Under the pieces are notes generated by a model. It was not told where the DNA came from and did not search any database. It saw only the letters and a program-made list of their open reading frames with translations. This document shows positions 1 to 36,659 of a stretch of 40,702 bases of DNA, in pieces; the first letter of the stretch is position 1, and every line of letters starts with the position of its first letter. The translations under genes were made by a program, and so were the position numbers. Source of the stretch: a virus (Duplodnaviria; Heunggongvirae; Uroviricota; Caudoviricetes); the IMG/VR virus record IMGVR_UViG_2923350032_000005, positions 1 through 40,702 of that record; one strand, given 5' to 3'.

Positions 1-354
1 ATGTTAGGAGCGATAGAAAAACGCTTTGGCGATAAAGTACCGGAACAGTCCATCCAGTGGCTGACAGATAACGGTTCAGCGTATAGAGCGCATGAAACAC
101 GGCAGTTCGCCAGAGAGTTGAATCTGGAGCCCTGCACAACGGCAATCAGCAGTCCTCAGAGTAATGGAATTGCAGAAAGGTTCGTGAAAACGATGAAGGA
201 AGACTACATCGCGTTCATGCCGAAACCGAATGTAAGAACGGCATTGCATAATCTTGCAGTGGCGATCGAACATTACAATGAAAACCATCCGCACAGTGCG
301 TTGGGTTATCGCTCTCCGCGAGAATATCGACGTCAGCGGGTAACGTTAACTTAA
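1..354 (+). mobile_element. IS3-family (IS2-group-like) transposase OrfB, C-terminal fragment running off the left window edge
   Basis: Translation ends ...[25 protein letters not shown]...[26 protein letters not shown]...[14 protein letters not shown], which matches from memory the DDE integrase-core C-terminus of IS2/IS3-family OrfB. The ORF is treated as a fragment because this is only the C-terminal part of a full OrfB; IS ends were not identified. Confidence 0.75.
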
Positions 355-395
355 GATACACCCCCTGTCTGGAAATAAGGGGGCAAGAACAATGA

Positions 396-1148
396 TCAGA
401 TTCCCTGGTGAGTAAGAATTTTACTTTCTGAACTCCTCTGAGAGTATTGACTTGGAGAAACACCAAAATAACGTCTAAATACATAAGTAAAGTATGAGAC
501 ACTGGCATAACCACAGACCTTAGCTACTTTACTAATAGGATAACAACGAGTGCTGAGTAAATATTCAGCCATTTGCATCCTCTCATCAAGTATGATCTTA
601 CTGAATGATACCCCCTCTTCTTTCAATTTCCTCTTTAGTAAACTTTCGCTGAGATATAATCTTGATGATATATCCTTAAGACGCCATGGTGCAGATAAAT
701 CCGTATGAATAATCGTTTTAACTTTAGCCCCTGTGCTTTTCAAACATCCAAACAGAAATACTCCAAATTGTTTTTCAGAAGAAAATGCAGAGAGACATGT
801 AAAAGCAATAGACTCATCAAAAATTTCTATGTATTCAGCACAGTGATTAGCCCAACTAATTAATCCTTTAATTAAACTGAAGTCAGCAAAGTTTATTTTT
901 AAATAAGATGGATATTCCCTACAATCAGAAATATCCCTTAAGTTATTAGCTTTCAAATAGCGACTAATAAACTCAGCGCCAAAATCCGCCACTATCACTC
1001 TTTCAGGATATGTCAGGAAAAAATCTCTAGAGCTAGAGTCGACAAGTACAGATGAACCTCTCTCCAGAAACACACTCTCTTTTCCGAAATAAACATCAAA
1101 GGACTCCAAAATCAATATAACTGAACATGTAGTTGCCATATCATCCAC
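396..1148 (-). CDS. AraC-family transcriptional regulator (C-terminal AraC-type HTH), in an AT-rich segment
   Basis: 250-aa ORF; C-terminal ...ISKVAKVCGYASVSYFTYVFRRYFGVSPSQY is the classic AraC/XylS second-helix signature. Surrounding DNA (about 400-1700) is visibly AT-rich relative to the prophage. The 3' end lies about 40 bp from the IS fragment. Confidence 0.6.
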   Translation of the reverse strand: MDDMATTCSVILILESFDVYFGKESVFLERGSSVLVDSSSRDFFLTYPERVIVADFGAEFISRYLKANNLRDISDCREYPSYLKINFADFSLIKGLISWANHCAEYIEIFDESIAFTCLSAFSSEKQFGVFLFGCLKSTGAKVKTIIHTDLSAPWRLKDISSRLYLSESLLKRKLKEEGVSFSKIILDERMQMAEYLLSTRCYPISKVAKVCGYASVSYFTYVFRRYFGVSPSQYSQRSSESKILTHQGI

Positions 1149-1721
1149 CCAATTTAACTGAAACCAGGATGAAGTATATGTATATAAAGTTCACTTTGCC
1201 AAACTTCAGTATAAAAAACCACTAAAAATAGGGTGTGATAAAAAATACCGTAACAATAAAGCAAAGGATTATAAATTCCGTTACAGTTACAAATGATACT
1301 CAAGAAACAATTCCTTAGGAAAAACTTATTTACAGCCAATAAGTAAGACACTTATATGATATCAAGTTTTCATAAAACATAACTAGGCTAAATAGCTGCG
1401 CCTAATACCGCTACACTTTTGCCAGCCCATGTTTGCCTCCGGGTATTGACCCCTTCTCTACGCAACTTCAGTTCCCACCACCAACTTTGCGGCAGCTTTG
1501 TAGGATCAATGTCTAAAAGAATAATGGTGACCGATAAGAAAACGACTGAATAACTGCAGATTTTCGCTCGAAACCTTCCTGTCAGATCCATAGCGAATCA
1601 AGTGCTGAATGTCACAGTATCGAACAGAAAACAGTGACGATCTAACCCTTCAAGAATATTCTACGATTGTTCTGTTTAGGAAAAGCAAGGCGGGAAGTCG
1701 GGAGATAAGTCATTGATAAAG

Positions 1722-1787
1722 TGGCGGAGAGAGGGGGATTTGAACCCCCGGTAGAGTTGCCCCTACTCCGGTTTTCGAGACCGGTCC
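1722..1787 (-). tRNA. Truncated tRNA-Ser (serU-like) 3' fragment, 66 nt from anticodon stem to CCA; no 5' half. Probable integration-site (att) remnant
   Basis: Reverse complement reads GGACCGGTCTCGAAAACCGGAGTAGGGGCAACTCTACCGGGGGTTCAAATCCCCCTCTCTCCGCCA, which matches the 3' two-thirds of E. coli tRNA-Ser(CGA) as I recall it. The upstream sequence does not continue into the D-arm or acceptor 5' strand. Confidence 0.65.
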
Positions 1788-1867
1788 AATCATCAAACGA
1801 AACATAAAATTAATTCACATTATGAGGAAAAGTATCTTTTTTGTACTATGTAAATTCAAAGACTTAG

Positions 1868-2737
<870 letters not shown>

Positions 2738-2797
2738 GTCTTTAAGTGATAAGCATAAACCGCAGCACGATCTTCTTGCATACGACGTGCTACGGTT

Positions 2798-3352
2798 TCA
2801 TTTATCTCCGACCGGAAACTTCTTATACAGTGTCGATATACCAACATCATAGATAATCGCCACCTTCTGGCGAGGAACGCCTGATGCAATTAATCGTCCG
2901 GCCTGCTCCCATTGTTCTGGTGTAAGTTTGGGGCGACGTCCACCAATTCGTCCCTGTGCGCGAGCTGCTTCCAGTCCAGCTTTTGTTCGTTCAACAATCA
3001 GTTCACGCTCCATTTCAGCCAGGGCACCCATCACATGAAAGAAAAAGCGCCCCATTGGGGTACTGGTATCAATTGAATCCGTCAGACTACGAAAGTTGAT
3101 GCCTCGTTCGCGCAACTCCTCCACCAGCACGACAAGATGCCGCATACTGCGCCCCAGTCGGTCCAGTTTCCAGACCACCAGCGTGTCACCTGCCGATAAT
3201 GTCCTGAGCAGCTTTTTCAGTCCTGGTCTGTCGGACTTTGTACCGCTTATCTTGTCTTCAAAAATCAGCTCACATCCTGCACAGTTCAGCGCATTACGTT
3301 GTAGATCGGTATTCTGGTCATTTGTTGATACACGTACATAGCCAATAAGCAT
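2798..3352 (-). CDS. pin: Serine-recombinase DNA invertase, Pin/Gin/Hin/Cin family
   Basis: Translation from the ATG at 3352: MLIGYVRVSTNDQNTDLQRNAL...DTLVVWKLDRLGRS...C-terminal HTH (GVPRQKVAIIYDVGISTLYKK). The ORF-track start at 3388 is an upstream extension. Adjacent to an invertible tail-fibre segment. Confidence 0.9.
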   Translation of the reverse strand: MLIGYVRVSTNDQNTDLQRNALNCAGCELIFEDKISGTKSDRPGLKKLLRTLSAGDTLVVWKLDRLGRSMRHLVVLVEELRERGINFRSLTDSIDTSTPMGRFFFHVMGALAEMERELIVERTKAGLEAARAQGRIGGRRPKLTPEQWEQAGRLIASGVPRQKVAIIYDVGISTLYKKFPVGDK

Positions 3353-3406
3353 GTTAAATCCCCCTGGTAAAAGCAGGAATGATGCCATTTGCTCGTTATT
3401 TCTGCA

Positions 3407-3432
3407 TTTTCATATACGTTGGTTTGGGAGAA
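3407..3432. repeat. Invertase crossover site (pix/gix-like), pin-proximal
   Basis: Inner half GGTTTGGGAGAA (3421-3432) is the exact reverse complement of TTCTCCCAAACC at 5154-5165; central dinucleotide TT at 3419-3420. The outer half matches only weakly. Confidence 0.55.
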
Positions 3433-3884
3433 GGCTCTGCATTACCTGTTGGTGTGCCTGTTCCGTGGCCCTCAGCCACTCCGCCAACAGGCTGGCTAAA
3501 ATGCAACGGAGCAGCTTTTTCTGCTGAAGAATACCCGGAACTGGCAAAGGCTTACCCGACAAATAAATTGCCTGATTTACGCGGTGAATTTATTCGTGGC
3601 TGGGATGACGGACGTGGAGTGGATGCCGGGCGACAATTATTATCTTCACAGGGGGATGCAATAAGAAATATTGAGGGATTCGCAGATGGCGGGATCGGCA
3701 TGTCTTTTGATGCAATCAGAGGGGCTTTTTACGATGCAGGAACACGATCAGCGAGAATGCCGAATAACACAACTGATATAGGCAAAACGATGACCTTGGA
3801 TTCGACGCCTCTCGTGTCGTGCCAACAGCTAATGAAAACCGTCCACGTAACATCGCCTTTAATTATATTGTGAGGGCTGCATAA
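3421..3884 (+). pseudogene. Alternate (silent-orientation) tail-fibre C-terminal cassette (Sv'-like, tail-collar type) with an apparent reading-frame break
   Basis: Frame continuous with the crossover site encodes GLGEGSALPVGVPVPWP...LPDLRGEFIRGWDDGRGVDAGR (tail-collar motif) up to about 3777. The conserved fibre C-terminus ...DDLGFDASRVVPTANENRPRNIAFNYIVRAA-stop is in the -1 frame (3777-3884) and its stop overlaps the next ATG as TAATG. Confidence 0.5.
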
Positions 3885-4476
3885 TGAAACCTGTTTTTGA
3901 TGAAAATGGGCTGGCTACAGTGCCGGGTGATATGCGTTGTTATTATTATGATGCAGTAACGTCTGAATATACGGGCTGGTCTGATGAATATATTAATACT
4001 GGCGTAAGTATGCCCGCCTGTTCCACTGGTATTGACCCGGGCGAATACATTCCGGGGCAAGTGGCAGTATTCACGGGTAAGGATGGAGCCATGAAGAAGA
4101 CCATCGCAATGAGACTGTTTACTCAACAGAAAATGGCGCAGCTGTTACAGTGGATTATATCGGTGCCATCAAAGACGGTTATGTCACGCTTTCACCGTTA
4201 ACGCCATATGATAAATGGGATGGTGAGAAATGGGTGACAGATACTGAGGCACAACACGATGCCGCAGTAGAAGCGGCAGAAGCACAGCGCCAGTCACTGA
4301 TTGATGCAGCAATGGCTTCCATTAGTCTGATTCAGCTGAAATTACAGGCCGGGCGGAAACTGACGCAGGCAGAAACAACCCGGCTTAACGCTGTGCTGGA
4401 TTACATTGACGCGGTGACGGCAACAGATACCAGCACCGCGCCGGATGTCATCTGGCCTGAACTGCCGGAGGCGTAG
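3884..4476 (+). pseudogene. Alternate tail-fibre assembly chaperone (tfa'), split by an apparent -1 frame break near 4081-4087
   Basis: ORF 3884..4201 gives the N-terminal part (MKPVFDENGLATVPGDM...GQVAVFTGKD) and ORF 4150..4476 the C-terminal part (...[15 protein letters not shown], the typical Tfa ending). The frame-1 sequence WSHEEDHRNETVY... opens right after a stop at 4078-4080 and continues the protein. Confidence 0.55.
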
Positions 4477-4879
4477 GCCATTCAATATCGGGTGCTGTTG
4501 AAGTATCAACACGCATCAGCAGCACACGGTATTTCTTCCATTCGGTGAGAGTTGAAGTTTCTTCATCAGTTGCGATATCAGCATCAACAGCATCCTGACG
4601 CCAGGATATTTCACTGTCAGCTTTTTCCCGTAATTGGGATTTTTTAACTTCAGCAATAGCTATTAATTCCTTTTTGGTCGGCTGAGGAATATCTATCAGT
4701 GCTGGTTTTCCATTCAGTGTTCCAATCTGTTTTCCTGGTGGAATATCCATAAATAACTTTTTATGTTCTTCCTCACTGACTATTACACCATCATCAGGCC
4801 ACAGACCTGATGCCTCAAATTTTTCTTTCTCCGATATGGGAAAAGCCATTTGCTTTAGCGCTCCATACGTACATATCAA
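4448..4879 (-). CDS. Tail-fibre assembly chaperone (Tfa), expressed orientation
   Basis: Ends ...[26 protein letters not shown], a typical Tfa C-terminus. The ORF-track start at 4879 is TTG; an ATG ([10 protein letters not shown]) lies at 4849. Directly follows the fibre gene. Confidence 0.75.
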
Positions 4880-4889
4880 TACCCCACCG

Positions 4890-5456
4890 CTATAATGTCC
4901 ACATTAAATCCTCCGGACCTGCCTGCCAGATGCTGGCCCCTGTTAATGATTTTGTTTGATGAACAACCGCCACATTTGCTGGCGATTGTGTTTCAGTTGT
5001 TACAGTACCGATATCATTCCAGTTAATTGAGATGGAATAGTTCGTTGTTGTAAACGACCGGGGAAAGTTATGTGTCTTACATTGGTGCCAATAGGAAATC
5101 CAAGATAAACACGCTGTTATCATTCCTCCAGGTAACATAACCCAGTTAGCACCTTCTCCCAAACCAAGGTTTTCGAGAGCCGTTTTCACCGTGCCGTCCG
5201 ATTTGATATCGCCAAACGGATTTTTGCGGCTTAACAGTAGCGCACTAAGCGCGGTAAGCAGCTGGTCGTGCCGCCCCTTCTCCAGGCTGGCACCGGATGC
5301 CTCCACCACGCCGCAAAGCTCCTCCTGCAACATGTCAAAGTAGTCATCATCCAGATCGGTGGCAGGTGTGCCGGTCTGGGGGTTACCACGGGTAAAACCG
5401 TTCTTACCCGCGCCGAACTTATCCTTCTGCGCGGTTTTCGTGTCTATACGATGCAT
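4890..5456 (-). CDS. Tail-fibre protein: constant N-terminal part fused through the crossover site to the currently expressed variable C-terminal part (StfP/StfE-like)
   Basis: Starts [21 protein letters not shown]... (conserved fibre N-terminus). The crossover site at 5154-5179 lies inside the ORF, encoding ...ENLGLGEG... ATG at 5456 verified on the sequence. Confidence 0.7.
5154..5179. repeat. Invertase crossover site (hix/gix/pix-like, 26 bp, imperfect palindrome), distal
   Basis: TTCTCCCAAACC-AA-GGTTTTCGAGAG closely resembles hixL (TTCTTGAAAACC-AA-GGTTTTTGATAA, from memory). Its inner half is an exact inverted repeat of 3421-3432. Confidence 0.7.
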
Positions 5457-5459
5457 GGA

Positions 5460-6044
5460 TTACTCCGGATATTTAAAAATTACGTAGGTATGCGACGGGC
5501 AGAGTTTGTTAAGCACACACTCGACAACGGTGTCGCCCCAGATACGCAGTGCGGAATCACAGGGATCGCCACATGTCATCCAGGTGGTGTTGGTGGCAGC
5601 TGGCATGTTGACCTGCCAGTAATACCGCCATTCCAGCGCATTCACTGCGTCAGTACAGGCCGATGAGCAGGTGAACGTGCTTTTATCGTATCGCGTGATA
5701 GTGGCGTCTGGTCTGCCCAGGGCAGCAAGCTGTGCAAGGTAAAAATCCTCATTGATGCCGCCCGCCAGATTAACCTTCGCATCCAGCCGTTGCTGACGCT
5801 GGCGAAGGGTCTGTGTCCCTGCGGGAATACATTCATCCGGCAGACCGCACAGACGCTCCCAGCGGTTTATCAGTTCAGTGGTGGTGCGCGGATCCAGCTC
5901 CCGCATCAGGGCATCCGCACGCTGATGAACGCGGGTTAATGACGGTGCCGCACCGGCAATCGCCGGATCGCTGACTGACCACGCCGGACCGGGCGGCAAC
6001 AGTGCCGACAACAGACGGATATAATCATCGTTTGTCACGTCCAT
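5460..6044 (-). CDS. Tail/baseplate protein, YmfQ / Mu gp48-like
   Basis: 194 aa, [22 protein letters not shown]...; position immediately upstream of the tail fibre; resemblance to e14 YmfQ family from memory. Confidence 0.6.
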
Positions 6045-7093
6045 GAAATCGTCCCCAGAACTGCCAGCTCATTTTTTGCAATGGAGATATTGTCTGCCGG
6101 TGCAAGCAACTGATGGCTGTATTCCCCGTTCGCACCGGAAATCGCTTCACTGATACGTGACACCTTCAGTTCTCCCTGCGGATAACCATCACGCAGCAGG
6201 AACGAACGCAACTCGGCGGTGATGGCAGCCCGTATTTCCGGTGTGTCCGGCGTCACGCGGATATGAAAATCCACTTTATGCGCCACCGGCCTGAATACAT
6301 ACAAATCAGAGCCTGCCACCGGGGCCAATGGCCCGATATGTTGTCTTGCCGCCGTTTCCGTTGACTCTTCCGGAATGGGATTAATCAGGTCACTGCTGGC
6401 AATCATCACACCGACAGTCCCCGTTCCCATCCAGTGTCGGTATGTCCATGCGCGGGTAATGCCGGGCACTTCTTTAGCCCAGACGACATAGTCCCCGTCA
6501 GCCCCGCCCTGAGGCGTCCAGTAATACCGCTCAATGACGCGGGCGCGCCACGTTTCCAGCTCTTCAGTATCAAATCCGCCTGTCAGGGTGTCAGCCACAC
6601 CGGAAGACGGCAGACCATTCACCGGCGTGACCAGGATTAATGCCGTACCGTCGTCAGCGTTACCGACCGCGCCTGCACTTGAGCAGGCGATCGGCACGCG
6701 CAGGACACCACCGGAGCTGGTTGCATCGGCAGTTGCCGTGTACTGAACCAGGTCATCGCGCTGAATCACGCTCCCGGCGGTCACTTTCAGGCCATCGCTG
6801 ACACCTTCCCAGCGCATATACCCGCTGGCAGCCGTGGCCCCCTTGCGCGGACACCGTTTCATCGCAGCATGTCGCGCCAGCCAGGACTCATCGCACAGGT
6901 CAGGCAGCATGTTCATTGCCAGATAATCGATGTAACCGTAAACCGTATGCAGCGCCGCCGCATACACCTTTGCCCGCACGTCTTCATCCATGCGCCGGAG
7001 CGTGTCGCTGACGTCCAGCCTGGCGAATAAATCGTTACGGAGCATACTGATATTTTCTGCCAGCGTCGGGCGCTGAAATTCACTGTCCGCCAT
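6035..7093 (-). CDS. Baseplate J-like protein (Mu gp47-like)
   Basis: 352-aa ORF in the conserved Mu-like baseplate gene order between gp46-like and gp48-like genes. Confidence 0.7.
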
Positions 7094-7508
7094 GCGTTAT
7101 CGCACTCCACAGATCATCAAAAGAAATCATTACCGGTCCGTCACGACGCCAGAGAGTGATACTGTTACCCAGTTCATTAATCCCGGTGCGGCGGATATCC
7201 AGATCAATACGGGACACCACGCCGTCATCAATCATCCATTGCAGGCATTCGCGGATATACCCCCTTACCGTCTGCACCAGCTGATTGGTCAGTTTGCTGC
7301 GCTGAAGCAGCCACAGTCGGGAGCCGTAACGGTCATTCTGTACCGCAGGCCAGGTATCCCCCCACCATCCCATCGGGACGTCGGCATTGTCATCAGGTTC
7401 AGCCCGCCGCCAGGTGAACAGGGAAATCACCACGGCACGGGTCAGCGGATCCAGCGGTGCGCTAGCGCAGGTGCGTTTACCGTTCACCGTCAGCCACAGT
7501 TCCATCAT
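7080..7508 (-). CDS. Baseplate protein, Mu gp46-like
   Basis: 142 aa; synteny within the Mu-type baseplate block; overlapping start/stop coupling with neighbours. Confidence 0.6.
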   Translation of the reverse strand: MMELWLTVNGKRTCASAPLDPLTRAVVISLFTWRRAEPDDNADVPMGWWGDTWPAVQNDRYGSRLWLLQRSKLTNQLVQTVRGYIRECLQWMIDDGVVSRIDLDIRRTGINELGNSITLWRRDGPVMISFDDLWSAITHGGQ

Positions 7509-8053
7509 GCCTCCATCGCTTTATCAGGTTTGTCGGTGTTACTGCCCTGACCGTTCTCTCTGTGACGATGCCCGTTATAGGCAAGCCGCATCGCTGACAT
7601 GGTGGTGCCGCTGGAGTCGCACAGGTCTTTCACCTGTCCGGTCACTTCCAGGTCCATTTCAAAACGAGCCTTAGGCGCATTGCGAAACGTGATCGTTTTA
7701 CCTGCACCGTCCACCACGATCCCCTCCCGGGTCAGCGTCACGGACTGCCCCTGATCGTCATAGACAGCCACCTCACCCGTCTGCAGCCCTTTCAGGCGGT
7801 AGCGCCGGTCCGACACCGTAACAACCACCGCATGAGAACGGTCGCCATCCGGAAACAACACCACCGCTTCCGCACCGCTGTTTGCCCTTGCGGTAAAACC
7901 GTAGGGTTCAAGATGTTCAACCCCGGCTTTGGGTTCACCGGCAATCAGAGACACATCCACGGTCTGACATTTCGTGGCGGCACTGATGCTTTTCACCACG
8001 GCCCGCCCAATCAGGCCGAGGAGTTGTCGCTGCATGGCTTCAATCGTCCTCAT
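7505..8053 (-). CDS. Baseplate assembly protein V / spike (Mu gp45-like)
   Basis: 182 aa; position and size typical of gpV-type spike proteins in Mu/P2-like baseplate modules. Confidence 0.65.
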   Translation of the reverse strand: MRTIEAMQRQLLGLIGRAVVKSISAATKCQTVDVSLIAGEPKAGVEHLEPYGFTARANSGAEAVVLFPDGDRSHAVVVTVSDRRYRLKGLQTGEVAVYDDQGQSVTLTREGIVVDGAGKTITFRNAPKARFEMDLEVTGQVKDLCDSSGTTMSAMRLAYNGHRHRENGQGSNTDKPDKAMEA

Positions 8054-9132
8054 CAGAACGGGTCCTCCTGTACTCTGGCTTTTTTCTTTTTTCGCGCGCC
8101 GGGGGCTTCGGGTTCAGGCAGATAAGCATCAGGTGGGCCGACACGGATTTCCGTCAGGGTGCCGTTCTGGTCCTGAGTAAACGTGACTTCCGAAACAAGC
8201 AGTTCGGTATTGTCGAAACCACAGACCGGATCAAAGACAATCACCCGCTGGTTGGGCTGCCACAGCGTACCGTTACCCTGTCGCCAGCCCTGCACCACAT
8301 AGGTGGTTTCATCCGTCCGCGCCGCCCGTTGTCTGGCTTCAAAGTCCGCACGGGCAATACAGCCTGCCCCCGTAGCCTGCCCTGTCTGCCTGATATACAT
8401 CGGACGGTAACGGGCAATAAATGCGTCCTCTGTGCGGGCCCGCAGCGCGGTGGTGGTGGCCTCACCGAAATCATCGTCGTTTCCGGCACGCTGCCCCGCC
8501 ACCTGGTAAACAGAAAACCGCTCCCGGATACTCTTCTCCGTATCACAGGAAAGGATGTTTTCCCCGAGTACCAGCGCAGTATGTGCCCGCGTTGAGCCAA
8601 TACCGCCAATCACCAGCCTGCCGTGCGGGTCGTCGTAAGCCAGTGCCTGCTGCTGACCGAGTATTTTGTTGATTACCTCAATCACCGTTTCACCGTGATC
8701 AGGCTGAACATCAGGAATAACACCCGACGGCGCACCGCTGTTCACCACCTCAATGCCGAAAGGCGCAGCAAGCGCCTGCGCAATCTGCACCAGCGAGCGT
8801 CCGTTAAACTGTGTCGGTTCGGCTGCACAGTCAATCAGGTCAGCCGTCAGACTACGTCCGGCAATACCGGTGCTGACCGAACGGGCATCGTAACGAACGG
8901 GCGTCGCCTCCACCCAGCCGGTGATCACCAGCTCATCACCAATCAGCACTTCCACTTTTGAACCGTTTTTAATGCGCGGCTGAAGCGTGGTGATACCCTC
9001 ATCTCCCGGCCACTGGCGGGTGATCTCCACACTGAAATCCCGCGCCAGCCGTTCAATACCGGCACCGATGCGCACCGATGTCCAGCCATTCCACTCCCGG
9101 CCATTTACCCGTAGCGTGACATTGTCGTTCAT
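8053..9132 (-). CDS. Tail protein, Mu P / P2 gpD-like (baseplate hub)
   Basis: 359 aa; follows the DNA-circulation-like gene as in Mu (N then P). Confidence 0.65.
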   Translation of the reverse strand: MNDNVTLRVNGREWNGWTSVRIGAGIERLARDFSVEITRQWPGDEGITTLQPRIKNGSKVEVLIGDELVITGWVEATPVRYDARSVSTGIAGRSLTADLIDCAAEPTQFNGRSLVQIAQALAAPFGIEVVNSGAPSGVIPDVQPDHGETVIEVINKILGQQQALAYDDPHGRLVIGGIGSTRAHTALVLGENILSCDTEKSIRERFSVYQVAGQRAGNDDDFGEATTTALRARTEDAFIARYRPMYIRQTGQATGAGCIARADFEARQRAARTDETTYVVQGWRQGNGTLWQPNQRVIVFDPVCGFDNTELLVSEVTFTQDQNGTLTEIRVGPPDAYLPEPEAPGARKKKKARVQEDPF

Positions 9133-15417: not shown

Positions 15418-15965
15418 GTTTTTTTCCTTCTTACAGGACGTAATGACCGCTGTAACTCACGGGACAGTAACTTTTGTGTCCAGTAACGACGCTGGTCGAT
15501 GACATCAGCCATAAAGTTATTACGTGGTGCCAGCCGCCAGCGGGATGAATGCTGCTTTTTCTGGCGCTTATCCTTTTTGCTCATCCCGTATGCGGCATGA
15601 CGCACACCGTAATACAGAAACGCCGGATAATACGCAGAACCTTCAGGAAAACGCCGGTTACCCTGCCCGTTTTTCTGGTTAGGGGAAATCCTGACCATCA
15701 GGCCAGAACGACGGGAGCTTTTACGGGGGACGTAATAACCTATAGAACGCGCAAGTCGTCCGGTCTGATAGCCGGGGTTTTCACCTGGAGCAGACCGACC
15801 ACGTCGCATCACCAGCCGCCGGGCATCACGCATATAGACACGCCCGATTTGAACAAATGCCCTTCGGAGCCTGGCACGGTTAAACTCCATCTCCTCCGGT
15901 TGTTTGAAATCAACGTGTAAAAATGCTGTCTGATCCACTGCGTCCTCCCATTTGTTCTTCGGCAC
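15414..15965 (-). CDS. HK97 gp10-like head-tail joining protein
   Basis: 183 aa, basic; position after the head-tail adaptor in an HK97-type head module. Confidence 0.5.
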   Translation of the reverse strand: MPKNKWEDAVDQTAFLHVDFKQPEEMEFNRARLRRAFVQIGRVYMRDARRLVMRRGRSAPGENPGYQTGRLARSIGYYVPRKSSRRSGLMVRISPNQKNGQGNRRFPEGSAYYPAFLYYGVRHAAYGMSKKDKRQKKQHSSRWRLAPRNNFMADVIDQRRYWTQKLLSRELQRSLRPVRRKKT

Positions 15966-29045: not shown

Positions 29046-29728
29046 GCCGCCATCTCCCTGACCAGTTTTTCTGCCTGATGGCGAACCTGCGCCAGAAAGG
29101 CCTCACCACATGCCTCAAGTTCATCGCGCCCGATGTAGCTGATTGCCGGTCCCTTCCAGGTCTTGTCGAAAACAGCAATAGCACCAGCGAAGAAAGCGCC
29201 TGTCGGCACCTGCTTCTCATCCTTCGGGATAAACCAGGCAGGCAGTTCAAAACCAATACGCCCGCGAATAAAAGCAATATGATCTGCATCTTCCGGCCAC
29301 CACACTTCGCTGGTGGCAGCTTTGATCAGGAAAACATAGCGCCCGCCTTTATCACGCATGGCACTGGCATGCTTCATGATGTAACGCATGCCGGTGATGT
29401 ATTGCCCCTCATGCTGACTGGCGCGGCTGTATGGGGGATTACCAAAGGCAGCACCTTTAAGCTCCGCAAGGCGTTCTGACCAGTCATGCGCCAGCGCGTT
29501 GTCTTCCGCCGTGTAATACGCAGCACATTTGGCGTTATCACCGTCAGTGAACAGATCCAGAACAAACGGGCCAAACAGGGTGTTAATTCCCCAGAAAATG
29601 TTGTCCGGCGTGCGCCACTGATCGCCCACTTCCTTCAGTTCATGGGCTGGTTTGTTCCGCAGTTCCACCAGCGCCTGGCAATATTTATTACTCATTAAGC
29701 CCCCACGTAATTCCCTGAGAGATACCAC
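29042..29728 (-). CDS. Orphan DNA N6-adenine methyltransferase (phage Dam-like)
   Basis: 228 aa with ...GAAFGNPPYS... (DPPY-type catalytic motif); no adjacent restriction endonuclease. True start may be the internal ATG (MSNKYCQ) near 29695. Confidence 0.75.
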   Translation of the reverse strand: MVSLRELRGGLMSNKYCQALVELRNKPAHELKEVGDQWRTPDNIFWGINTLFGPFVLDLFTDGDNAKCAAYYTAEDNALAHDWSERLAELKGAAFGNPPYSRASQHEGQYITGMRYIMKHASAMRDKGGRYVFLIKAATSEVWWPEDADHIAFIRGRIGFELPAWFIPKDEKQVPTGAFFAGAIAVFDKTWKGPAISYIGRDELEACGEAFLAQVRHQAEKLVREMAA

Positions 29729-30189
29729 TCTTCACCTGATGCAGCCCGCTTACTGCTTTTCCGTAAACACCGTTCACGACGCGCCAGAAAATTGTTTCGT
29801 TCTGGCTGGGAGTGGCTTTCACGGAATGCCGCCATCCACACCGTTGCAGCACGACGGTATAAGCCCCTGGACTCCAGTTCTTCCGCCTGGCGGGTCAGGC
29901 ACAAAATCACCCGCGGGTCGTTAGTGCCGACATAGAAATTGCGCACAGGTCTGGTTTCACGAACTGGTTGCCGTTCCGCCTCCGGCGATATCTTTGTCTG
30001 GCGCGGGAAATGTCTGCGTGTATCCCCTTCACAACGGTGAGCCACACGCCCACTCTGACGTAACTTGCTTGCTGACTGCAGAACGCGCTGCCGTGAGTAA
30101 CCAGCAAAAGCATCCGCAATGTCTCCGGAAGTACACCCCGGATGGGCTTCAATGAATTTCTGAACTTCATTCAAAAGACTCATAATCAC
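29695..30189 (-). CDS. PerC-like domain protein (putative transcriptional activator)
   Basis: 164 aa; C-terminal half AEELESRGLYRRAATVWMAAF resembles the PerC/Pch signature as I remember it; identification tentative. Confidence 0.45.
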   Translation of the reverse strand: MIMSLLNEVQKFIEAHPGCTSGDIADAFAGYSRQRVLQSASKLRQSGRVAHRCEGDTRRHFPRQTKISPEAERQPVRETRPVRNFYVGTNDPRVILCLTRQAEELESRGLYRRAATVWMAAFRESHSQPERNNFLARRERCLRKSSKRAASGEEWYLSGNYVGA

Positions 30190-31127
30190 CCCCTGAATCC
30201 TGCCGGGATCTGGCTGTAGTCCACGTTGTCGTAACTGGATTTGAAGTACGGGTCTTCGCGTTTTTCGGTGTACGTGCTGACGGACGGCGATAAGCGCAGG
30301 GAAAGCTCATCCCATTTTTCCCGCAGCTTCGACGGGCTGAGCACGTTACGGCACCAGAACGGATCGCGGCTGACGCGGCTGTACATCTCGCAGATTTGTT
30401 TGTGAGTACGACCATCCTGCACACACATCAGGCGAATTTCGTTTGCCCAGGCTGTCCAGTTCGGTTCTTTGGGACGAACCACCTCGCCGTCACATTCGGC
30501 AGCCTGCTCGTACAGGGCGATGATTTTTTTCCAGAGCCACTGTGCGCAGGTCAAATCATCCTGCGTCCCCCACTGGCGCTTTTTAGGGCTGAATACAACC
30601 GCATCAGGATGGCGAGTTAAAAAATCCTGTTCATCCGTCTGCGTGTCCGGTTGCGAAGCGTCCGGACGAGAAGTTTTTTTATCTGACGGATCATGTTTTG
30701 ATTTTACTGACGGATCCCCGCCAGATTCTGACGGGTGAAAACCCGCTTTTTTGCCAGATTTCGACGCATCAAATTTTGACGGGTCAGATTTTGATGCGTC
30801 AGATTTTGACGGGTCAGAATCTGACAGTTGAGAAAATGCCGCTGCCTGAAGCTTCGCAACGTTAAGCTGATAAACATTCGACGCATTGCGGTTACCCTGG
30901 CGACGCGCCTTACGCGTTAACCAGCCTTCTGCTTCCAGCCGTGCGATAGCCGTTCTGACGGTACTCATCCCCGCGCCAATCTGGCGGGCAATGGTTTCAA
31001 TTGATGGCCAGCACACACCTTCGTCATTACTGAAATCAGCCAGGCGGGCCATAATTGCCACGCTGGATAATTTCATGCCTGATGCAGCGCAACCATCCCA
31101 TACATAGCCGGTTAATTTAGTGCTCAT
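30186..31127 (-). CDS. Replication initiator, O-like, with internal origin iterons
   Basis: 313 aa; N-terminal HTH region (…SIETIARQIGAGMSTVRTAIARLEAEGWL…); the central low-complexity repeat SDASKSDPSKFDASKS is encoded by the iterons. Confidence 0.8.
   Translation of the reverse strand: MSTKLTGYVWDGCAASGMKLSSVAIMARLADFSNDEGVCWPSIETIARQIGAGMSTVRTAIARLEAEGWLTRKARRQGNRNASNVYQLNVAKLQAAAFSQLSDSDPSKSDASKSDPSKFDASKSGKKAGFHPSESGGDPSVKSKHDPSDKKTSRPDASQPDTQTDEQDFLTRHPDAVVFSPKKRQWGTQDDLTCAQWLWKKIIALYEQAAECDGEVVRPKEPNWTAWANEIRLMCVQDGRTHKQICEMYSRVSRDPFWCRNVLSPSKLREKWDELSLRLSPSVSTYTEKREDPYFKSSYDNVDYSQIPAGFRG
30681..30827. repeat. Origin iterons: about eight direct repeats of a ~15-bp unit inside the O-like gene
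   Basis: Units such as TCAGATTTTGACGGG / TCAGATTTTGATGCG / CCAGATTCTGACGGG seen directly; a T-run at 30674-30680 flanks them. Confidence 0.65.
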
Positions 31128-31136
31128 GACCGACCT

Positions 31137-31475
31137 CTATTTCCCTGAATTTACGACGAAACTGTTCGAGCGGGCTGAAGCACTCATGCTCATAGCCTTC
31201 GCGGAGGTAGATAACTCGTTGTGTTTCCGGCTCCCAACGAATGACTCTGACGGGCACTCCGTAGTGATCTTTGAACCAGCGGTTAACTTGTCGCAAAGGA
31301 CTGTCTCCTTCTGCCGGTTGAAATCACCCACAGCCCACTCAGCAAAGCTGTGGGTTACAATTTCCCTGTCACCAGGTACATTAACTGCATAGCAATACTC
31401 CACCTTCGCTTTTCCACCCGGTACAGGAAGCGCAATCAGTTGCGAGCGACGGTAGTGTGTTGTTAAACTGTTCAT
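31137..31475 (-). CDS. Hypothetical protein (uncertain) between CII-like and O-like genes
   Basis: 112-aa ORF filling a 344-bp gap; contains an 8-bp inverted repeat (CCCACAGC...GCTGTGGG); could instead be non-coding. Confidence 0.3.
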
Positions 31476-32023
31476 GCGTTAGTTTCTCCACAGTCACGAC
31501 ACGCCACGGCGCCCGGAGCTGCACACTCGCGGGCGTCATTACTTTCTGAAATGCAAAAGATTTTGTAGACCAGTGCTGCATGCTCCTGCAGCTTCGAAAT
31601 TGAGAGATACAGCTCGTCGTTAATTGCTGTCTGCTCGTGTGGCTCCACTACCCCATCTTCGATTGCCGAACGAATCTGCTTTGAGTAACTCCCGATCTGT
31701 TCGATGACTTCCAGCAGGCGCTGGTTTATATCGGCGTTCTCTACTTCCTCAATTTCAGGAAGCGATACGAACACCCCACCAGCAGACTGTGCGACAGCAT
31801 CCGCAATGTAGTGAGTGCCAGCTGCGCGCTGTAAAACCATTGCCCATCCCAGCGGGAAAATCTGATCGCCATCGGCACGAAGGCGGTTAAATAATGCGTT
31901 CTCTGTTACATCCAGCCAGTCAGCAGCTTCAGCGTAACCACCCGGCAACGCCGCGATAGTTTTTCTGACAGCTTTCACGTACCACTTAGGCTGTTTTTCT
32001 ACTTTCCAGTGATGCTTACCCAC
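31472..32023 (-). CDS. CII-like / YdaT-like regulatory protein
   Basis: ORF track gives 31472..32128; the likely start is the GTG at 32023 preceded by AAGGAG, or the ATG at 32056. Follows the Cro-like gene as in Rac (ydaS-ydaT). Confidence 0.55.
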
Positions 32024-32045
32024 GGCTATCTCCTTAAAACTGTGG

Positions 32046-32294
32046 TTACTTTTCATCTGATGAATCTTTAATCTTTTGAAAAATATCTGGACGTAATTTT
32101 TCTTTTGATATGCCAGTGGTCTTTTCAATGAATATCGAGAGCTTTGCAGGGGGACGCTTTTCTCTGTTCAACCAGTTCCAGACATGTTGTTGCTTTACTA
32201 AATGACCGCTGCTGGCTGTGAGCTTCCGAGCCAATTCTGATTGACCACCAGCCAGAGCGATTGCCTCCGATAAGGCTAATTGCTCAGGTGTCAT
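32046..32294 (-). CDS. Cro-like / YdaS-like HTH repressor (first gene of the rightward operon)
   Basis: 82 aa, LALSEAIALAGGQSELARKLTASSGHLVKQQHVWNWL is an HTH of the YdaS/Cro type; divergent from the cI-like gene across an operator region. Confidence 0.75.
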   Translation of the reverse strand: MTPEQLALSEAIALAGGQSELARKLTASSGHLVKQQHVWNWLNREKRPPAKLSIFIEKTTGISKEKLRPDIFQKIKDSSDEK

Positions 32295-32429
32295 AGCTTT
32301 CTCCTTTATAGGTAGTTAAGTTGTTACGAGTTGCAAGAATACAACATTAACAACTTTTATCACAACTTTTAGGTGTTGGAAAGCTAAAACATAAAGTTGT
32401 AACCTCATCAAAAAAGAGAGGGATATGTT
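32295..32429. promoter_or_regulatory. OR-like divergent promoter/operator region between the Cro-like and cI-like genes
   Basis: Repeated ACAAC / GTTGT half-sites (AGTTGTTACGAGTTGC, CACAACTTTTAGGTGTTG, ATAAAGTTGTAACC); similar motifs recur at 34020-34173. Confidence 0.5.
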
Positions 32430-33116
32430 GTGAAAACACTGGCAGAACGATTAAAGATAGGTAGAGAGAAAGCTGGCATGAGCCAAGCTCAACTAGCTGA
32501 AAAAATTGGACTTTCACAACAATCTGTAGCCAAAATAGAGAATGGCGAAACTCTACAACCGCGCAAAATTAAAGAAATTGCAAAAGTTTTAGGTGTATCA
32601 CAAAAGTGGTTACAACTTGGTATTGAAGACAACGCATCCATACCTGATCTTGTTGTAAAAGAAGCAGAAAGCACCGCATTAGACCCCGATATTTTCGTAA
32701 ACATTCCTGTTTTAGATGTCGAGTTATCGGCAGGTAACGGATGTCTGGCTGAAATAGTTGAATCAGCTATTGACTGGTTTCCATTAAGAAGAGCAGATTT
32801 GAGAAAATCTGGCGTATGTGCATCTAATGCCAAGATCGTAAAAATATGGGGGAACAGTTTATTACCGGTTCTCAATAATGGAGATCTTGTTGCCGTTGAT
32901 ATTTCTCAAACCGTTCCTATTCGTGATGGCGATCTTTATGCCGTACGAGATGGTGTATTGCTAAGGGTTAAAATACTTATCAACTTACCTGACGGTGGCT
33001 TGATTCTTAGAAGCTTCAACAAAGATGAGTACCCAGATGAAATACTCACCTTTGAAGATAGACGAGCCAGAATTCATGTTATAGGTAGGGTATTCTGGTC
33101 ATCGCGAACTTGGTAA
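32430..33116 (+). CDS. cI-like repressor (HTH plus S24 LexA-like peptidase domain)
   Basis: 228 aa; GTG start with RBS; N-terminal HTH (MSQAQLAEKIGLSQQSVAKIENGE) and C-terminal S24-like region. Confidence 0.85.
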   Translation: MKTLAERLKIGREKAGMSQAQLAEKIGLSQQSVAKIENGETLQPRKIKEIAKVLGVSQKWLQLGIEDNASIPDLVVKEAESTALDPDIFVNIPVLDVELSAGNGCLAEIVESAIDWFPLRRADLRKSGVCASNAKIVKIWGNSLLPVLNNGDLVAVDISQTVPIRDGDLYAVRDGVLLRVKILINLPDGGLILRSFNKDEYPDEILTFEDRRARIHVIGRVFWSSRTW

Positions 33117-33989
33117 TGCATCGAAAAGCATTTCTTCAGAAATAATTTTAAGTTTTGCACCATTATCATCCCTATAAGATATAGCCTTTTCGATCTTCCT
33201 TCCGTGACTTGAGAATTTCCAATCACGGGAGGAAAGCGTCCCAATTACTAAAAAATCCAACTTTTGAGTAATTCCACTACTGATGTTCCCACCAGCATTT
33301 TTAATCAAATTTTCAACTACGGCTCTCTTTCCTGCAACAAAAGTGCCTGTAAGACAATAGGTTTTACCCTCTAACTCTATCGAAGCCCCTACATCAATAG
33401 GCAGCCTGGTCGCCAAACCATCCACCACTCCACTTTCCAAGTCACATCCTGTGAAGTCTACTAATGCCTTATGTAGAGTTAAACTCTCATCTTCAGTAAT
33501 AACACCATCTTTAAGAATTTCCTTTACAAGTGCATAAAGTTTTTTTCCTGGGTAGTTGTTCTTCAAAGCTCCATTTTGCTCAAGCCACCAATTAAGATAT
33601 CTTATTTCTTCTTGAGTTAAGTTCCGATCAGCAATTAATCCTTTACATAGTCCATTAAGTAAATGGACATCTACATCCTTGGAGTAAAAATCAATTTCAG
33701 GGATATCAAGAATTTCCCTCTGTATTTGGAGAAGGCTATTTTTAAGGTCATCACGTTCTTCTGATGTGATTATTCCATCCGCAAGAATATCCGACACCCG
33801 TGCTGATAGACTTTTTATAACTCCATTATTGATAATCTGCTTTGCTTCAAGTAACCATGTATCTAAGTAAAGAACCTCCTCTTCACGGACAACTCCATCT
33901 GCAATAATTCCATCAATGATGCTAATCAAGTTAGCAAATAACTTGTCCCGGTTCTGTGTGTAATTAAAAGCGTAAAGCGCGTCTTCCAT
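33099..33989 (-). CDS. Protein with four TerB-like ~35-aa repeats and a C-terminal BRCT-like domain, in the cI-to-PL slot
   Basis: Start taken at the ATG at 33989 (MEDALYAF...). Repeats of the form DG(V/I)(V/I)xxEE..L..WL; C-terminus LEGKTYCLTGTFVAGKRAVVENLIKNAGGNISSGITQKLDFLVIG resembles BRCT. Convergent with cI, 18-bp 3' overlap. Domain calls are from memory. Confidence 0.55.
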   Translation of the reverse strand: MEDALYAFNYTQNRDKLFANLISIIDGIIADGVVREEEVLYLDTWLLEAKQIINNGVIKSLSARVSDILADGIITSEERDDLKNSLLQIQREILDIPEIDFYSKDVDVHLLNGLCKGLIADRNLTQEEIRYLNWWLEQNGALKNNYPGKKLYALVKEILKDGVITEDESLTLHKALVDFTGCDLESGVVDGLATRLPIDVGASIELEGKTYCLTGTFVAGKRAVVENLIKNAGGNISSGITQKLDFLVIGTLSSRDWKFSSHGRKIEKAISYRDDNGAKLKIISEEMLFDALPSSR

Positions 33990-34019
33990 ACAACCTCCTT
34001 TTTTTGATAATCCTTGCAC

Positions 34020-34173
34020 TCCTTGGCTACTCGTTCAAACCACATAAAGTTGTTGACAACATTCAAAACCACAACTAAATTACAACTTAAAGGTGTTAAA
34101 ACAACGAACAGGCAGGACGCCCACGAAGTAGCCGCCGGTGGCGTATGAATGACCGGATGATTCGTTAAATACT
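34020..34173. promoter_or_regulatory. OL/PL-like divergent promoter/operator region
   Basis: Contains AAGTTGTTGACAACATT (TTGACA -35-like hexamer inside an inverted GTTG...CAAC) and ACAACTTAAAGGTGTTA, close copies of motifs in 32295-32429. Confidence 0.45.
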
Positions 34174-34395
34174 ATGTGTAAGAGAGCGCAAATGAACCGT
34201 TATTTCACATGCTCGTTTTGTGGCGCAAACGAGCTGCAGGCAAAAAAAATCATCGCCAAAGGCGGAAAAGATGAAGTTGCTATCTGCTCTGAGTGCGTAG
34301 TCTTGTGTGTCGGGGCATTAATCAATATCAGCACAACTATTCAGTTCACACCAAATGAGAATGCGCCTTTAGATGCGCGGAAATCTGGAGGTTAA
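34174..34395 (+). CDS. Small protein with ClpX-type C4 zinc-finger-like motif (first PL-operon gene)
   Basis: 73 aa; FTCSFCGANELQAKKIIAKGGKDEVAICSECVVLC versus the ClpX N-terminal zinc-binding domain (…[31 protein letters not shown]…, from memory). Confidence 0.55.
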   Translation: MCKRAQMNRYFTCSFCGANELQAKKIIAKGGKDEVAICSECVVLCVGALINISTTIQFTPNENAPLDARKSGG

Positions 34396-34403
34396 AGAAC
34401 AAA

Positions 34404-34679
34404 ATGAAAGTCCAGATTTTAAACAATAGTGGTGAAGTCGTTTGGTCATACGACATAGCCGCTCCTGTAGATCAGAGCGGCGATAGCTGGACCAATGGGA
34501 AACATCAGATTATGGCTGGAGTTGTGTTCTCTTTACGCCGTGCTTTAGAACAGGCTGAAGTCTTTCCATCAGACCCTGAATGGAAATGGCCTTTTTCTAT
34601 TTGTCCAAATTCGGAGAGTACATTTCAGAAAATTGGTCAGAAAGTCGCACTCGAAGAGCATCAGCCAACTGTTTCCTGA
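34404..34679 (+). CDS. Hypothetical protein
   Basis: 91 aa; GGAGG RBS before the ATG; overlaps convergently with the next ORF by 83 bp, so one of the two may be spurious or shorter. Confidence 0.4.
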   Translation: MKVQILNNSGEVVWSYDIAAPVDQSGDSWTNGKHQIMAGVVFSLRRALEQAEVFPSDPEWKWPFSICPNSESTFQKIGQKVALEEHQPTVS

Positions 34680-34842
34680 TTTTTTCAGGTAACTCGTCGG
34701 CATCGCAGAAACAACAACGCTCGATCATGTTGAAAGCCGATTCGTAGAACTGTTTTTGCTGAGTGTCGCTGAGACAGGAAAAGAGCGACGTTACGATGAT
34801 TTTATTAATTGCATTATCAAGTTCTTTTTCATCAAAAGTCAT
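34597..34842 (-). CDS. Hypothetical protein (opposite strand)
   Basis: 81 aa with an AAGGA-type RBS; contains CCFC; convergent overlap with 34404..34679. Confidence 0.35.
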   Translation of the reverse strand: MTFDEKELDNAINKIIVTSLFSCLSDTQQKQFYESAFNMIERCCFCDADELPEKIRKQLADALRVRLSDQFSEMYSPNLDK

Positions 34843-35096
34843 TTGATTTTCCTTTTATGTATACGGGCTTAAAAGGATACCACCGAGCCTGAAGTGGTGA
34901 AAAGACAGGCACATAACAGCTAAGTATTTTCAACCAGAGAGAATCCTTAGCGTTGTGGTGAATGCGGCTCAGCGCACGCGGGTTAAGGTTGAGGCTGACA
35001 GTCGACCTTCTGTGGATACCCACCCGTCTGGTGTGCAACCTTCGCCAGGCACCGGGAGGCACCCGGCACCACAACTTTATGCTGTGTGTAGTCCTG

Positions 35097-35142
35097 GCGG
35101 TACCAGTTTGTACCCTTGCTTCCGGCTGGTACCGTCCTTTTT
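35097..35142 (+). terminator. Intrinsic terminator candidate inside a structured non-coding stretch
   Basis: Stem CGGTACCAG (35098-35106) / CTGGTACCG (35126-35134) with a 19-nt loop, followed by CCTTTTT. Confidence 0.5.
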
Positions 35143-35279
35143 ACAAAACAGAGAAGAGCATCACCGGACGACGGGCTCATAACCCAATCCATCCGGGAGG
35201 CTGCCACCGCAGGTGTTCTTCTCTGTTTTGTGGAGAAACTAATCGGCCTTGCAGGGTCGATATGATGAGGAGCAGCAAA

Positions 35280-35642
35280 ATGGCTAGCGAACGCAGTACT
35301 GATGTGCAGGCATTTATCGGGGAGCTGGACGGCGGCGTATTTGAAACCAAAATCGGCGCAGTTCTCAGTGAAGTCGCTTCCGGTGTGATGAACACGAAAA
35401 CCAAAGGTAAGGTCTCACTCAACCTGGAAATCGAACCATTTGATGAGAACCGTGTGAAAATCAAACACAAACTCTCATATGTTCGCCCGACTAACCGCGG
35501 GAAAATTTCCGAAGAAGACACCACCGAAACGCCGATGTATGTCAATCGCGGTGGTCGCCTGACTATTCTGCAGGAAGACCAGGGACAATTACTGACTCTT
35601 GCCGGTGAACCTGACGGAAAACTCCGCGCAGCAGGTCATTAA
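35280..35642 (+). CDS. Hypothetical protein, YfdP-like
   Basis: ORF track 34962..35642 is an upstream extension over structured non-coding DNA; the ATG at 35280 (MASERSTDVQAF...) has GAGGAG upstream. About 120 aa. Confidence 0.45.
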   Translation: MASERSTDVQAFIGELDGGVFETKIGAVLSEVASGVMNTKTKGKVSLNLEIEPFDENRVKIKHKLSYVRPTNRGKISEEDTTETPMYVNRGGRLTILQEDQGQLLTLAGEPDGKLRAAGH

Positions 35643-35707
35643 TATCGTTCTTAATTAACTGATTATTTATCTCATCACTGAATATCTTTATATAGTGAGG
35701 ACTTATT

Positions 35708-36532
35708 ATGTCTCAGAACTTAGACGCAACCGCAATTAATCAAATCCATGCCCTTATTTCTGCTCAGGGTGTTAATGAAATTATCAGTAAGATTGGTGCC
35801 GATGCTGTGGCATTGCCTGAGAATTTCCGCATTCATGATTTGGAAAAATTTAATTTAAATCGCTTCCGTTTCCGTGGTGCGCTTTCCACTGCCAGCATCG
35901 ATGACTTTACCCGTTATTCTAAAGATCTTGCAGATGAAGGCACCCGCTGCTTTATCGATGCTGATAATATGCGTGCCGTCAGTGTGCTTAACCTGGGTAC
36001 TATTGATGAACCAGGTCACGCAGATAACACCGCCACTCTCAAACTGAAAAAGACAGCACCGTTCTCTGCTCTGTTGTCTGTTAATGGCGAGCGTAACTCC
36101 CAGAAATCACTGGCAGAATGGATTGAAGACTGGGCCGACTACCTTGTGGGCTTTGATGCTAATGGTGACACCATTCAGGCAACAAAAGCGGCTGCGGCGG
36201 TCCGTAAAATCACGATTGAAGCAAACCAGACCGCTGATTTTGAAGATAATGACTTCAGCGGCAAACGCTCCCTGATGGAGTCTGTCGAAGCGAAGACCAA
36301 AGACATTATGCCAGTGGCATTTGAATTTAAATGCATTCCGTTTGAAGGTCTGAAAGAACGTCCGTTTAAATTACGCCTCAGCATTATCACTGGCGATCGT
36401 CCGGTACTGGTTCTGCGCATTATTCAGCTGGAGGCGGTGCAGGAAGAAATGGCTAACGAATTTCGTGATCTGCTTGTTGAGAAATTCAAGGACAGCAAAG
36501 TAGAAACCTTTATTGGTACTTTCACCGCCTGA
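35708..36532 (+). CDS. DUF2303-family protein, YfdQ-like
   Basis: 274 aa, [20 protein letters not shown]...; resembles CPS-53 YfdQ from memory; good RBS (GTGAGGA). Confidence 0.6.
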
Positions 36533-36659
36533 TTTCATTACTGCAAATGCCCCTGCGGGGGCATTTATGGAAACGTAATTTACTCAATAATCGCCGGATG
36601 GTGAGGGATTCTTTTTACCAGAATTCAGCGCGGTGCAGCGCATATACGTGGAGAACAAA

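Follow-up and report, generated by a model that had tools for sequence, protein, structure and literature searches.

A probable e14-type Pin/P inversion switch in the tail-fibre genes of an SfV-like prophage of E. coli

The fibre locus and its prophage

The window, by which we mean the whole 40,702-nucleotide stretch of DNA that was analysed (IMG/VR record IMGVR_UViG_2923350032_000005), holds a prophage of about 37 kb that is apparently complete. Its early genes are lambdoid, its head is of the HK97 type, and its contractile tail is Mu-like; it is integrated at a tRNA-Thr gene (window 39259-39334) beside proA. No exact att repeat of the thrW 3' end of at least 13 nt is found in window 1-3000; in the related genome OW968111, the partner att copy lies about 400 bp to the left of the window start. 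The part of the prophage of concern here runs from an invertase gene to the end of the baseplate operon and comprises the following features.

2798-3352, minus strand: pin, serine DNA invertase of 184 aa with the conserved active-site motif GYVRVSTNDQ (Resolvase and HTH_7 domains)
3263-3334, minus strand: predicted recombinational enhancer (sis), with a presumed function, at the 5' end of pin (coding nt 19-90)
3379-3418, plus strand: start and 13-codon leader MMPFARYFCIFIYV of the pin-proximal open reading frame (ORF), outside the segment (from the ORF list)
3407-3432, minus strand: pixR, the pin-proximal crossover site, TTCTCCCAAACC-AA-CGTATATGAAAA, with the crossover dinucleotide at 3419-3420
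3421-3884, plus strand: alternative fibre C-terminal cassette of the tail-collar type, currently facing pin (Pfam Collar, 1.2e-15)
3884-4476, plus strand: chaperone of the alternative cassette (Pfam Caudo_TAP on a 3' fragment)
4448-4874, minus strand: chaperone of the currently expressed cassette (Pfam Caudo_TAP, 1e-32; PHROG 188)
4876-5165, minus strand: fibre C-terminal cassette (Gp53-like_C), at present attached to the constant part
5154-5179, plus strand: pixL, the crossover site within the fibre gene, TTCTCCCAAACC-AA-GGTTTTCGAGAG, with the crossover dinucleotide at 5166-5167
5168-5456, minus strand: constant N-terminal part of the tail-fibre gene, about 96 codons, in the last gene of the baseplate operon

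The constant part of the fibre gene begins 3 nt downstream of a Mu gp48/YmfQ-like baseplate gene (5460-6044), and fibre residues 1 to 102 match PHROG tail-fibre families. As far as the crossover site, it is 95-96% identical to K-12 stfP and to SfV orf21, and there the homology ends. What follows in the present orientation is a tip whose intact version, in the E. coli genome GF75, matches Pfam Gp53-like_C just below the cut-off. The plus-strand chaperone is likewise intact in GF75, at 197 aa.

At the other end of the segment, the leader MMPFARYFCIFIYV forms an in-frame fusion with the cassette next to pin, whichever of the two that is. It is a homologue of K-12 stfE, the leader of which is MPFACYFFIFINVGLGEG, and in the genome GF8 it is fused to the Gp53-like cassette. 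When positions 3419-5167 are flipped in silico, the constant N terminus is joined to the tail-collar cassette in an unbroken reading frame. Read from its letters, then, the segment carries alternative fibre C termini with their chaperones on opposite strands, in frame both ways, although all four of these ORFs are frameshifted as assembled. The first-pass annotation had likewise described two tip-plus-chaperone cassettes on opposite strands. Their Pfam and ORF content agrees with that description, although as assembled the cassettes are not intact.

Crossover sites, invertase, and predicted enhancer

What marks the ends of the segment? The 14-mer TTCTCCCAAACCAA has exactly two copies in the window, in inverted orientation (3419-3432 on the minus strand and 5154-5167 on the plus strand), and even with up to two mismatches allowed only the two pix sites match in the 40.7 kb, against a chance expectation of 0.36. 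A repeat finder recovers the pair as a 19-nt inverted repeat (3416-3434 and 5152-5170; one mismatch, 95% complementary) with its arms 1,717 nt apart. The first-pass annotation had proposed two inverted 26-bp sites, at 3407-3432 and 5154-5179, with an exact inverted inner half in the partner. Sequence and inverted-repeat searches place them at just these positions, and the inner 12-bp halves and the central AA are identical in the two, whereas the outer halves agree at 6 of 12 positions. A GLGEG peptide is encoded across the site in either orientation (one reading is ...YVGLGEGSALP), and both the translations and the in silico inversion bear out the earlier claim of an in-frame swap. No third crossover site (14-nt core, up to two mismatches) is present in the whole window. 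A multiple-inversion system, like Min of p15B or the shufflons, was rejected on the grounds of these two core matches and a single AAACCNNGGTTT-type match in the window.

The sites have published namesakes. A table of Din-family sites lists those of the K-12 prophage e14 as pixL and pixR (PMC3241671); in K-12 MG1655, these are TTCTCCCAAACCAAGGTTTTCGAGAG within stfP and TTCTCCCAAACCAACGTTTATGAAAA beside pinE. The window pixL agrees with the published e14 pixL at 26 of 26 positions and the window pixR with the published pixR at 25 of 26. An earlier description of the fibre-gene site as very close to hixL is sound as far as it goes, with 20 of 26 positions matching (our own count; hixL from PMC3241671), but the closer identity is to e14 pixL. 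The exact pixL sequence is also found in K-12 e14, GF75, GF8, SKA5, and SfV, and the window pixR is identical to that of GF75, GF8, and OW968111. The central dinucleotide, AA, is that of the cix and hix sites, in contrast to the GA of gix.

Is the poorly matching outer half of pixR a defect? The degeneracy noted in the first-pass annotation is real. Its suggested effect on the efficiency of inversion is another matter, since GF75 and GF8 share the window pixR and yet differ by inversion, so the half-site is no block. The single extra change in the window pixR relative to the published site, GTTT to GTAT, is in addition found in the functional cixR and bixL sites (PMC3241671). A crippled site was ruled out for these two reasons, and the "degenerate" outer half is the usual form of pixR. 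The outer half of hixR, in the Hin system, is likewise a poor match.

Pin itself is readily placed. It matches Pfam Resolvase at 1.3e-51, along with HTH_7, and PHROG 125 ("DNA invertase") at 1e-97; compared with the crystallized Gin (PDB 3uj3), the E value is 1e-95, and the GYVRVSTNDQ motif is identical to that of Gin. It is 95.7% identical to K-12 PinE, 81.5% to P1 Cin, and 79.3% to Mu Gin, and in near-identical genomes the gene is annotated pinE in RefSeq. No NCBIfam equivalog matches Pin or the cassettes, and family assignment therefore came from Pfam, PHROGs, PDB, and direct comparison. On its domain content, Pin is a small serine recombinase of the Din family with a catalytic N terminus and a C-terminal helix-turn-helix. 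The gene is the sole invertase copy in the window. It starts 67 bp from the center of the left site, outside the segment, and is transcribed away from it, in keeping with the earlier placement of a serine invertase just beyond the segment's edge. A simple scan between pin and pixR detected no sigma-70 promoter; promoter-like sites there are fewer than in shuffled sequence.

Inversion by such enzymes also calls on an enhancer, and a candidate lies within pin. Two Fis-like 15-mers, TATCAACAAATGACC and GTGCAGGATGTGAGC, occupy 3316-3330 and 3268-3282 (pin coding nt 23-37 and 71-85), with their centers 48 nt apart, and the same two 15-mers are found at equal coding positions in pin, gin, and cin. 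In the P1 record, the Cin enhancer is annotated at cin coding nt 19-90, an interval within which the Fis-like 15-mers fall. The Hin enhancer has two Fis dimer sites with 47 bp between centers (PMC3798978), and the 5' end of pin would thus carry an enhancer with two Fis sites at a Hin-like spacing.

The Mu Gin and P1 Cin systems are also among the closest known ones. Their enzymes belong to the same family (79-82% identical to the window Pin), their 26-bp sites have the same architecture, and their enhancers also lie in the 5' end of the invertase gene. In both phages, as here, the crossover falls inside a tail-fibre gene and two tip-plus-chaperone cassettes are present, and the Mu invertase gene, like pin, is oriented away from its segment. 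They differ in scale: the segment is 1.75 kb here versus 3 kb for Mu G and 4.2 kb for P1 C, and the fibre is about 190-250 aa versus about 500-1000 aa in Mu and P1. The Hin system shares the central AA and the spacing of the enhancer Fis sites, but Hin flips a flagellin promoter and hin lies inside its segment, whereas here a coding sequence is swapped and pin lies outside.

Orientation in related genomes and deletions in the window

Complete E. coli genomes were searched both with the window sequence and with a construct inverted in silico. Full-length, single-piece matches to the window orientation, at 99.5% identity, are present in GF75 and CDF6, and the inverted construct is found at 99.5-99.7% identity and 100% coverage, again in one piece, in OW968111, GF8, and GF161. 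At a coverage of at least 80%, six of the complete E. coli genomes have the window orientation and nine the opposite one. One such pair is GF75 and GF8, which come from the same study and have 0 differences over 8,909 bp after a flip at the central dinucleotides. More distant pairs with opposite orientations are 20KM0223N with MEI148-20EC and Z1323HEC0067 with Z1323HEC0423. Inversion at these sites has occurred in nature, within the lineage, and the first-pass proposal of an invertible segment is borne out by near-identical prophages in both orientations with their breakpoints inside the sites.

The copy in the window is, however, not identical to these relatives. Compared with GF75, it lacks 8 nt in six events, at 3788, 4082, 4840, 4916, 5063, and 5116. 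All six are inside the segment, and together they frameshift all four cassette ORFs relative to relatives that are 99.5-100% identical. These deletions went unremarked in the first-pass annotation. Their effects are as follows.

3788, plus strand, 1-nt deletion: tail-collar cassette, conserved ...RPRNIAFNYIVRAA end lost
4082, plus strand, 1-nt deletion: plus-strand chaperone, now two ORFs (3884-4201 and 4150-4476)
4840, minus strand, 2-nt deletion: minus-strand chaperone, ATG at 4874 out of frame
5116 (2 nt), 5063 (1 nt), and 4916 (1 nt), minus strand: expressed fibre tip, internal out-of-frame stretch and altered end

As a consequence, the product of window ORF 4890-5456 departs from its GF75 counterpart over residues about 114-130 and again across its final 12 residues. 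The majority of the events trim short homopolymer runs (G, C, or A). How unusual is this pattern? Over window 1-8600, the 8 missing bases are the sole differences from OW968111 (flipped in silico), with no substitutions. Over 22.8 kb aligned to the same genome, six of eight gap events fall within the 1.75-kb segment (binomial P = 5e-6), and the ratio of indels to substitutions is 6:1 inside the segment and 2:40 outside (Fisher P = 1.3e-5). The alignment to GF75, about 38 kb long, contains no further coding indels. The frameshifted 188-aa fibre has no record by exact look-up in 153 billion gene positions, and no GTDB species representative contains an exact match to a 77-mer that runs across two of the deletions; the deletions are therefore without confirmation in any independent assembly.

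Readings of the locus

Do the deletions mean that the switch has decayed? One reading is that pin and the sites are relics and the six frameshifts real, so that fibre variation has been lost in this strain whether or not the segment still flips. Frameshifts in all four cassette genes as assembled are what it would predict, and the lack of the frameshifted protein and of the 77-mer from every other public assembly searched is compatible with private mutations. Natural decay would, however, look different from six indel events beside zero substitutions over the 8.6 kb compared with OW968111, and it would hardly confine coding indels to the segment in some 38 kb aligned to GF75 or place three separate deletions in a single 97-codon cassette. 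Moreover, pin, the two pix sites, and the enhancer region all remain intact, with sequences identical to their counterparts in inverted lineage members. We therefore regard a decayed or locked switch as quite improbable. Because substitutions are lacking over 8.6 kb, the deletions are most likely assembly errors, and a consensus or polishing artefact is, in our judgment, the very probable explanation of all six. A repeated region, or mixed orientation in the sequenced culture, may have been the source of error; many E. coli genomes have more than one copy of the region. Very little weight is left for two further ideas taken jointly. One is that the deletions are real and reflect local hypermutation of the segment or a slippage-type on/off layer atop inversion, in which case the switch would alternate non-functional fibre tips. 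The other is that the leader-cassette fusion, the analogue of StfE2, might be expressed and protect the host by blocking a receptor, a role already reported in K-12, in which case the switch would serve the host as well as the phage.

Two other readings concern what flips the segment. The shared repeat might be a mere conserved coding motif (ENLGLGEG) at a module boundary in SfV-like fibres, with the two orientations produced by homologous recombination or cassette exchange and not by Pin. SfV, which has no invertase, does keep an exact pixL in orf21, and homology between phages does break exactly at the site. At only 19 nt, on the other hand, the shared repeat falls below the length needed for efficient RecA recombination. 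The partner site adjoins the invertase gene, as in Mu gin, and the sole difference between GF75 and GF8 is a clean, reciprocal inversion. Experiments have, furthermore, established that a 96%-identical PinE inverts the same sites (PMC12529663; PMC4272514), and we give the coding-motif idea next to no credence. Somewhat different is the question of which invertase does the work. In K-12, qPCR, PCR, and whole-genome sequencing have shown that PinE inverts the segment and that PinQ does so in trans (PMC12529663; PMC4272514), and PinQ, encoded by prophage Qin, inverts the e14 P segment to 88%, versus 49% for PinE (PMC12529663). Related invertase/fibre modules are common, moreover: matching places number 2 per E. 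coli genome at the median and can reach 11-12. The segment might then be flipped mainly by a Pin-family enzyme of another prophage, with the adjacent pin in a minor role. K-12 pinE and pinE pinQ mutants are, however, locked in one orientation (PMC12529663), and the window has this one invertase only, so that a leading part for an enzyme acting in trans seems unlikely.

The preferred reading, in which we have high confidence, identifies the locus as the Pin/P-segment inversion switch carried by an e14/SfV-like E. coli prophage of the myovirus type, which lies at tRNA-Thr (thrW) beside proA. How would such a switch operate? By analogy with Hin and Gin, Pin dimers would bind the two 26-bp pix sites, while host Fis, judging from homology with Hin, Gin, and Cin, would bind the two enhancer sites, which are spaced 48 nt from each other within the opening 90 nt of pin. 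The three DNA segments would then assemble into an invertasome on supercoiled DNA. Pin would presumably cleave both sites at the central AA/TT dinucleotide, and half of the tetramer would rotate 180 degrees before the ends are religated, leaving the 1,747-bp segment (1,755 bp in intact relatives) flipped. Since the crossover lies within the fibre gene at the GLGEG codons, the 96-codon N terminus would be joined in frame to either tip. The choice would be between the Gp53-like and the tail-collar tip, each followed by its own assembly chaperone, and the two tips presumably confer two alternative host ranges, as the kinship with Hin, Gin, and Cin would suggest.

The system is already known: Pin, the pix sites, and their inversion have been described since the 1980s, and near-identical copies are annotated pinE. 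The K-12 e14 Pin/P segment (pinE, stfP-tfaP / tfaE-stfE) was reportedly treated by Plasterk and van de Putte in 1985 and by Mehta et al. in 2004. Gene order is the same in the two prophages, running from ymfQ through the fibre constant part, a cassette, tfa, tfa, and a second cassette to pin. They have in common the pin region, the stfE-type leader ORF, part of the tail-collar cassette (about 92% identical over window 3421-3661), half of tfaE, and the constant region. In contrast, K-12 stfP/tfaP is unrelated beyond the constant part to the expressed Gp53-like tip and tfa of the window (4510-5146), the segment is 1,747-1,755 bp here versus 1,797 bp in e14, and the gene beside pin is a GIY-YIG gene here versus mcrA in K-12. 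The settings also differ, e14 being a 15-kb remnant at icd, whereas the window prophage is full-length, about 37 kb, SfV-like, and located at thrW. Here the e14 switch can be seen in what is apparently a complete SfV-like prophage, the kind of element that gave rise to the K-12 remnant. For annotation, the fibre gene and its alternative tip are best treated as one invertible unit, and for quality control, the segment deletions need a check of the reads before the four genes are called pseudogenes.

The wider SfV-like group illustrates what the switch requires. The Shigella phages SfV, SfI, SfII, and SfIV share 96-97% identity with the window across the baseplate genes and the constant part of the fibre, and the homology breaks off precisely at pixL. 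SfV carries one fixed tip with its chaperone and retains the site in the absence of any invertase; the site alone therefore makes no switch, and a partner site and pin are needed. Escherichia phage SKA5, an isolated phage, has both an invertase and a two-cassette segment in the layout seen here, though its invertase is only 54% identical to the window Pin and the outer half of its proximal site differs.

Small deletions in the invertible segment

How far does the window depart from its closest relatives, and where? The Pin-type invertible segment, which carries two cassettes of fibre tip and chaperone genes, holds all six of the small deletions, 8 nt in total:

window 3788, 4082, 4840, 4916, 5063 and 5116: small deletions

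Most of them shorten short runs of G, C or A, and together they frameshift four of the four cassette genes. They account for every difference between window 1-8600 and E. coli OW968111. Against E. coli GF75, and leaving aside a divergent patch at 15836-15960, the only other indels are at 22920 and 22951: the window is missing a single GTAAT copy from a short tandem array and a single base from a T8 run. The six segment deletions are probably errors of assembly or polishing, arising in a region that is repeated or of mixed orientation.

Leader ORF, chaperone overlap and crossover site

On the side of the invertase gene pin, a short reading frame begins outside the segment:

3379-3418 (+): leader ORF of 13 codons (MMPFARYFCIFIYV)

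This leader joins in frame with either cassette, depending on which faces pin, and has a homologue in stfE of K-12. The K-12 chimera StfE2, the equivalent of the leader-cassette fusion, has been reported to block adsorption of phage T2 (PMC12529663). Within the segment, the two chaperone genes converge and overlap at their 3' ends by 29 nt (window 4448-4476), as do tfaP and tfaE of the K-12 cryptic prophage e14.

At the other end, the exact 26-bp sequence of the crossover site pixL is kept in Shigella phage SfV (U82619, 4002-4027), within orf21. It is retained there although this phage lacks an invertase and carries only one fibre tip. Between the window and phages of the SfV type, homology stops exactly at pixL, which therefore also serves as a module boundary.

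Mosaic structure and flanking genes

Sequence comparison shows a mosaic prophage, put together from two lineages of lambdoid or SfV-like type. The late half, encoding head and tail (window 1-22839), is 99.8-100% identical to the OW968111 prophage; the early/regulatory half (22840-37850) is unrelated to that prophage and resembles GF75.

From the left end of the window:

1-354: IS3-family transposase fragment, left of the prophage
396-1148 (-): AraC-family regulator, left of the prophage
1913-2737 (+): LEM-3-like GIY-YIG domain gene (PHROG 5356, function unknown), directly beyond pin

For the thrW 3' end (region 39241-39304), the window contains no att repeat. In OW968111 the partner att copy lies about 400 bp past the position matching the window's left end, and the IS3 fragment and AraC-family gene therefore fall within the att-bounded island. 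The position of the GIY-YIG gene may be a variable slot for cargo or defence, because K-12 e14 has mcrA, a type IV restriction gene, in that position.
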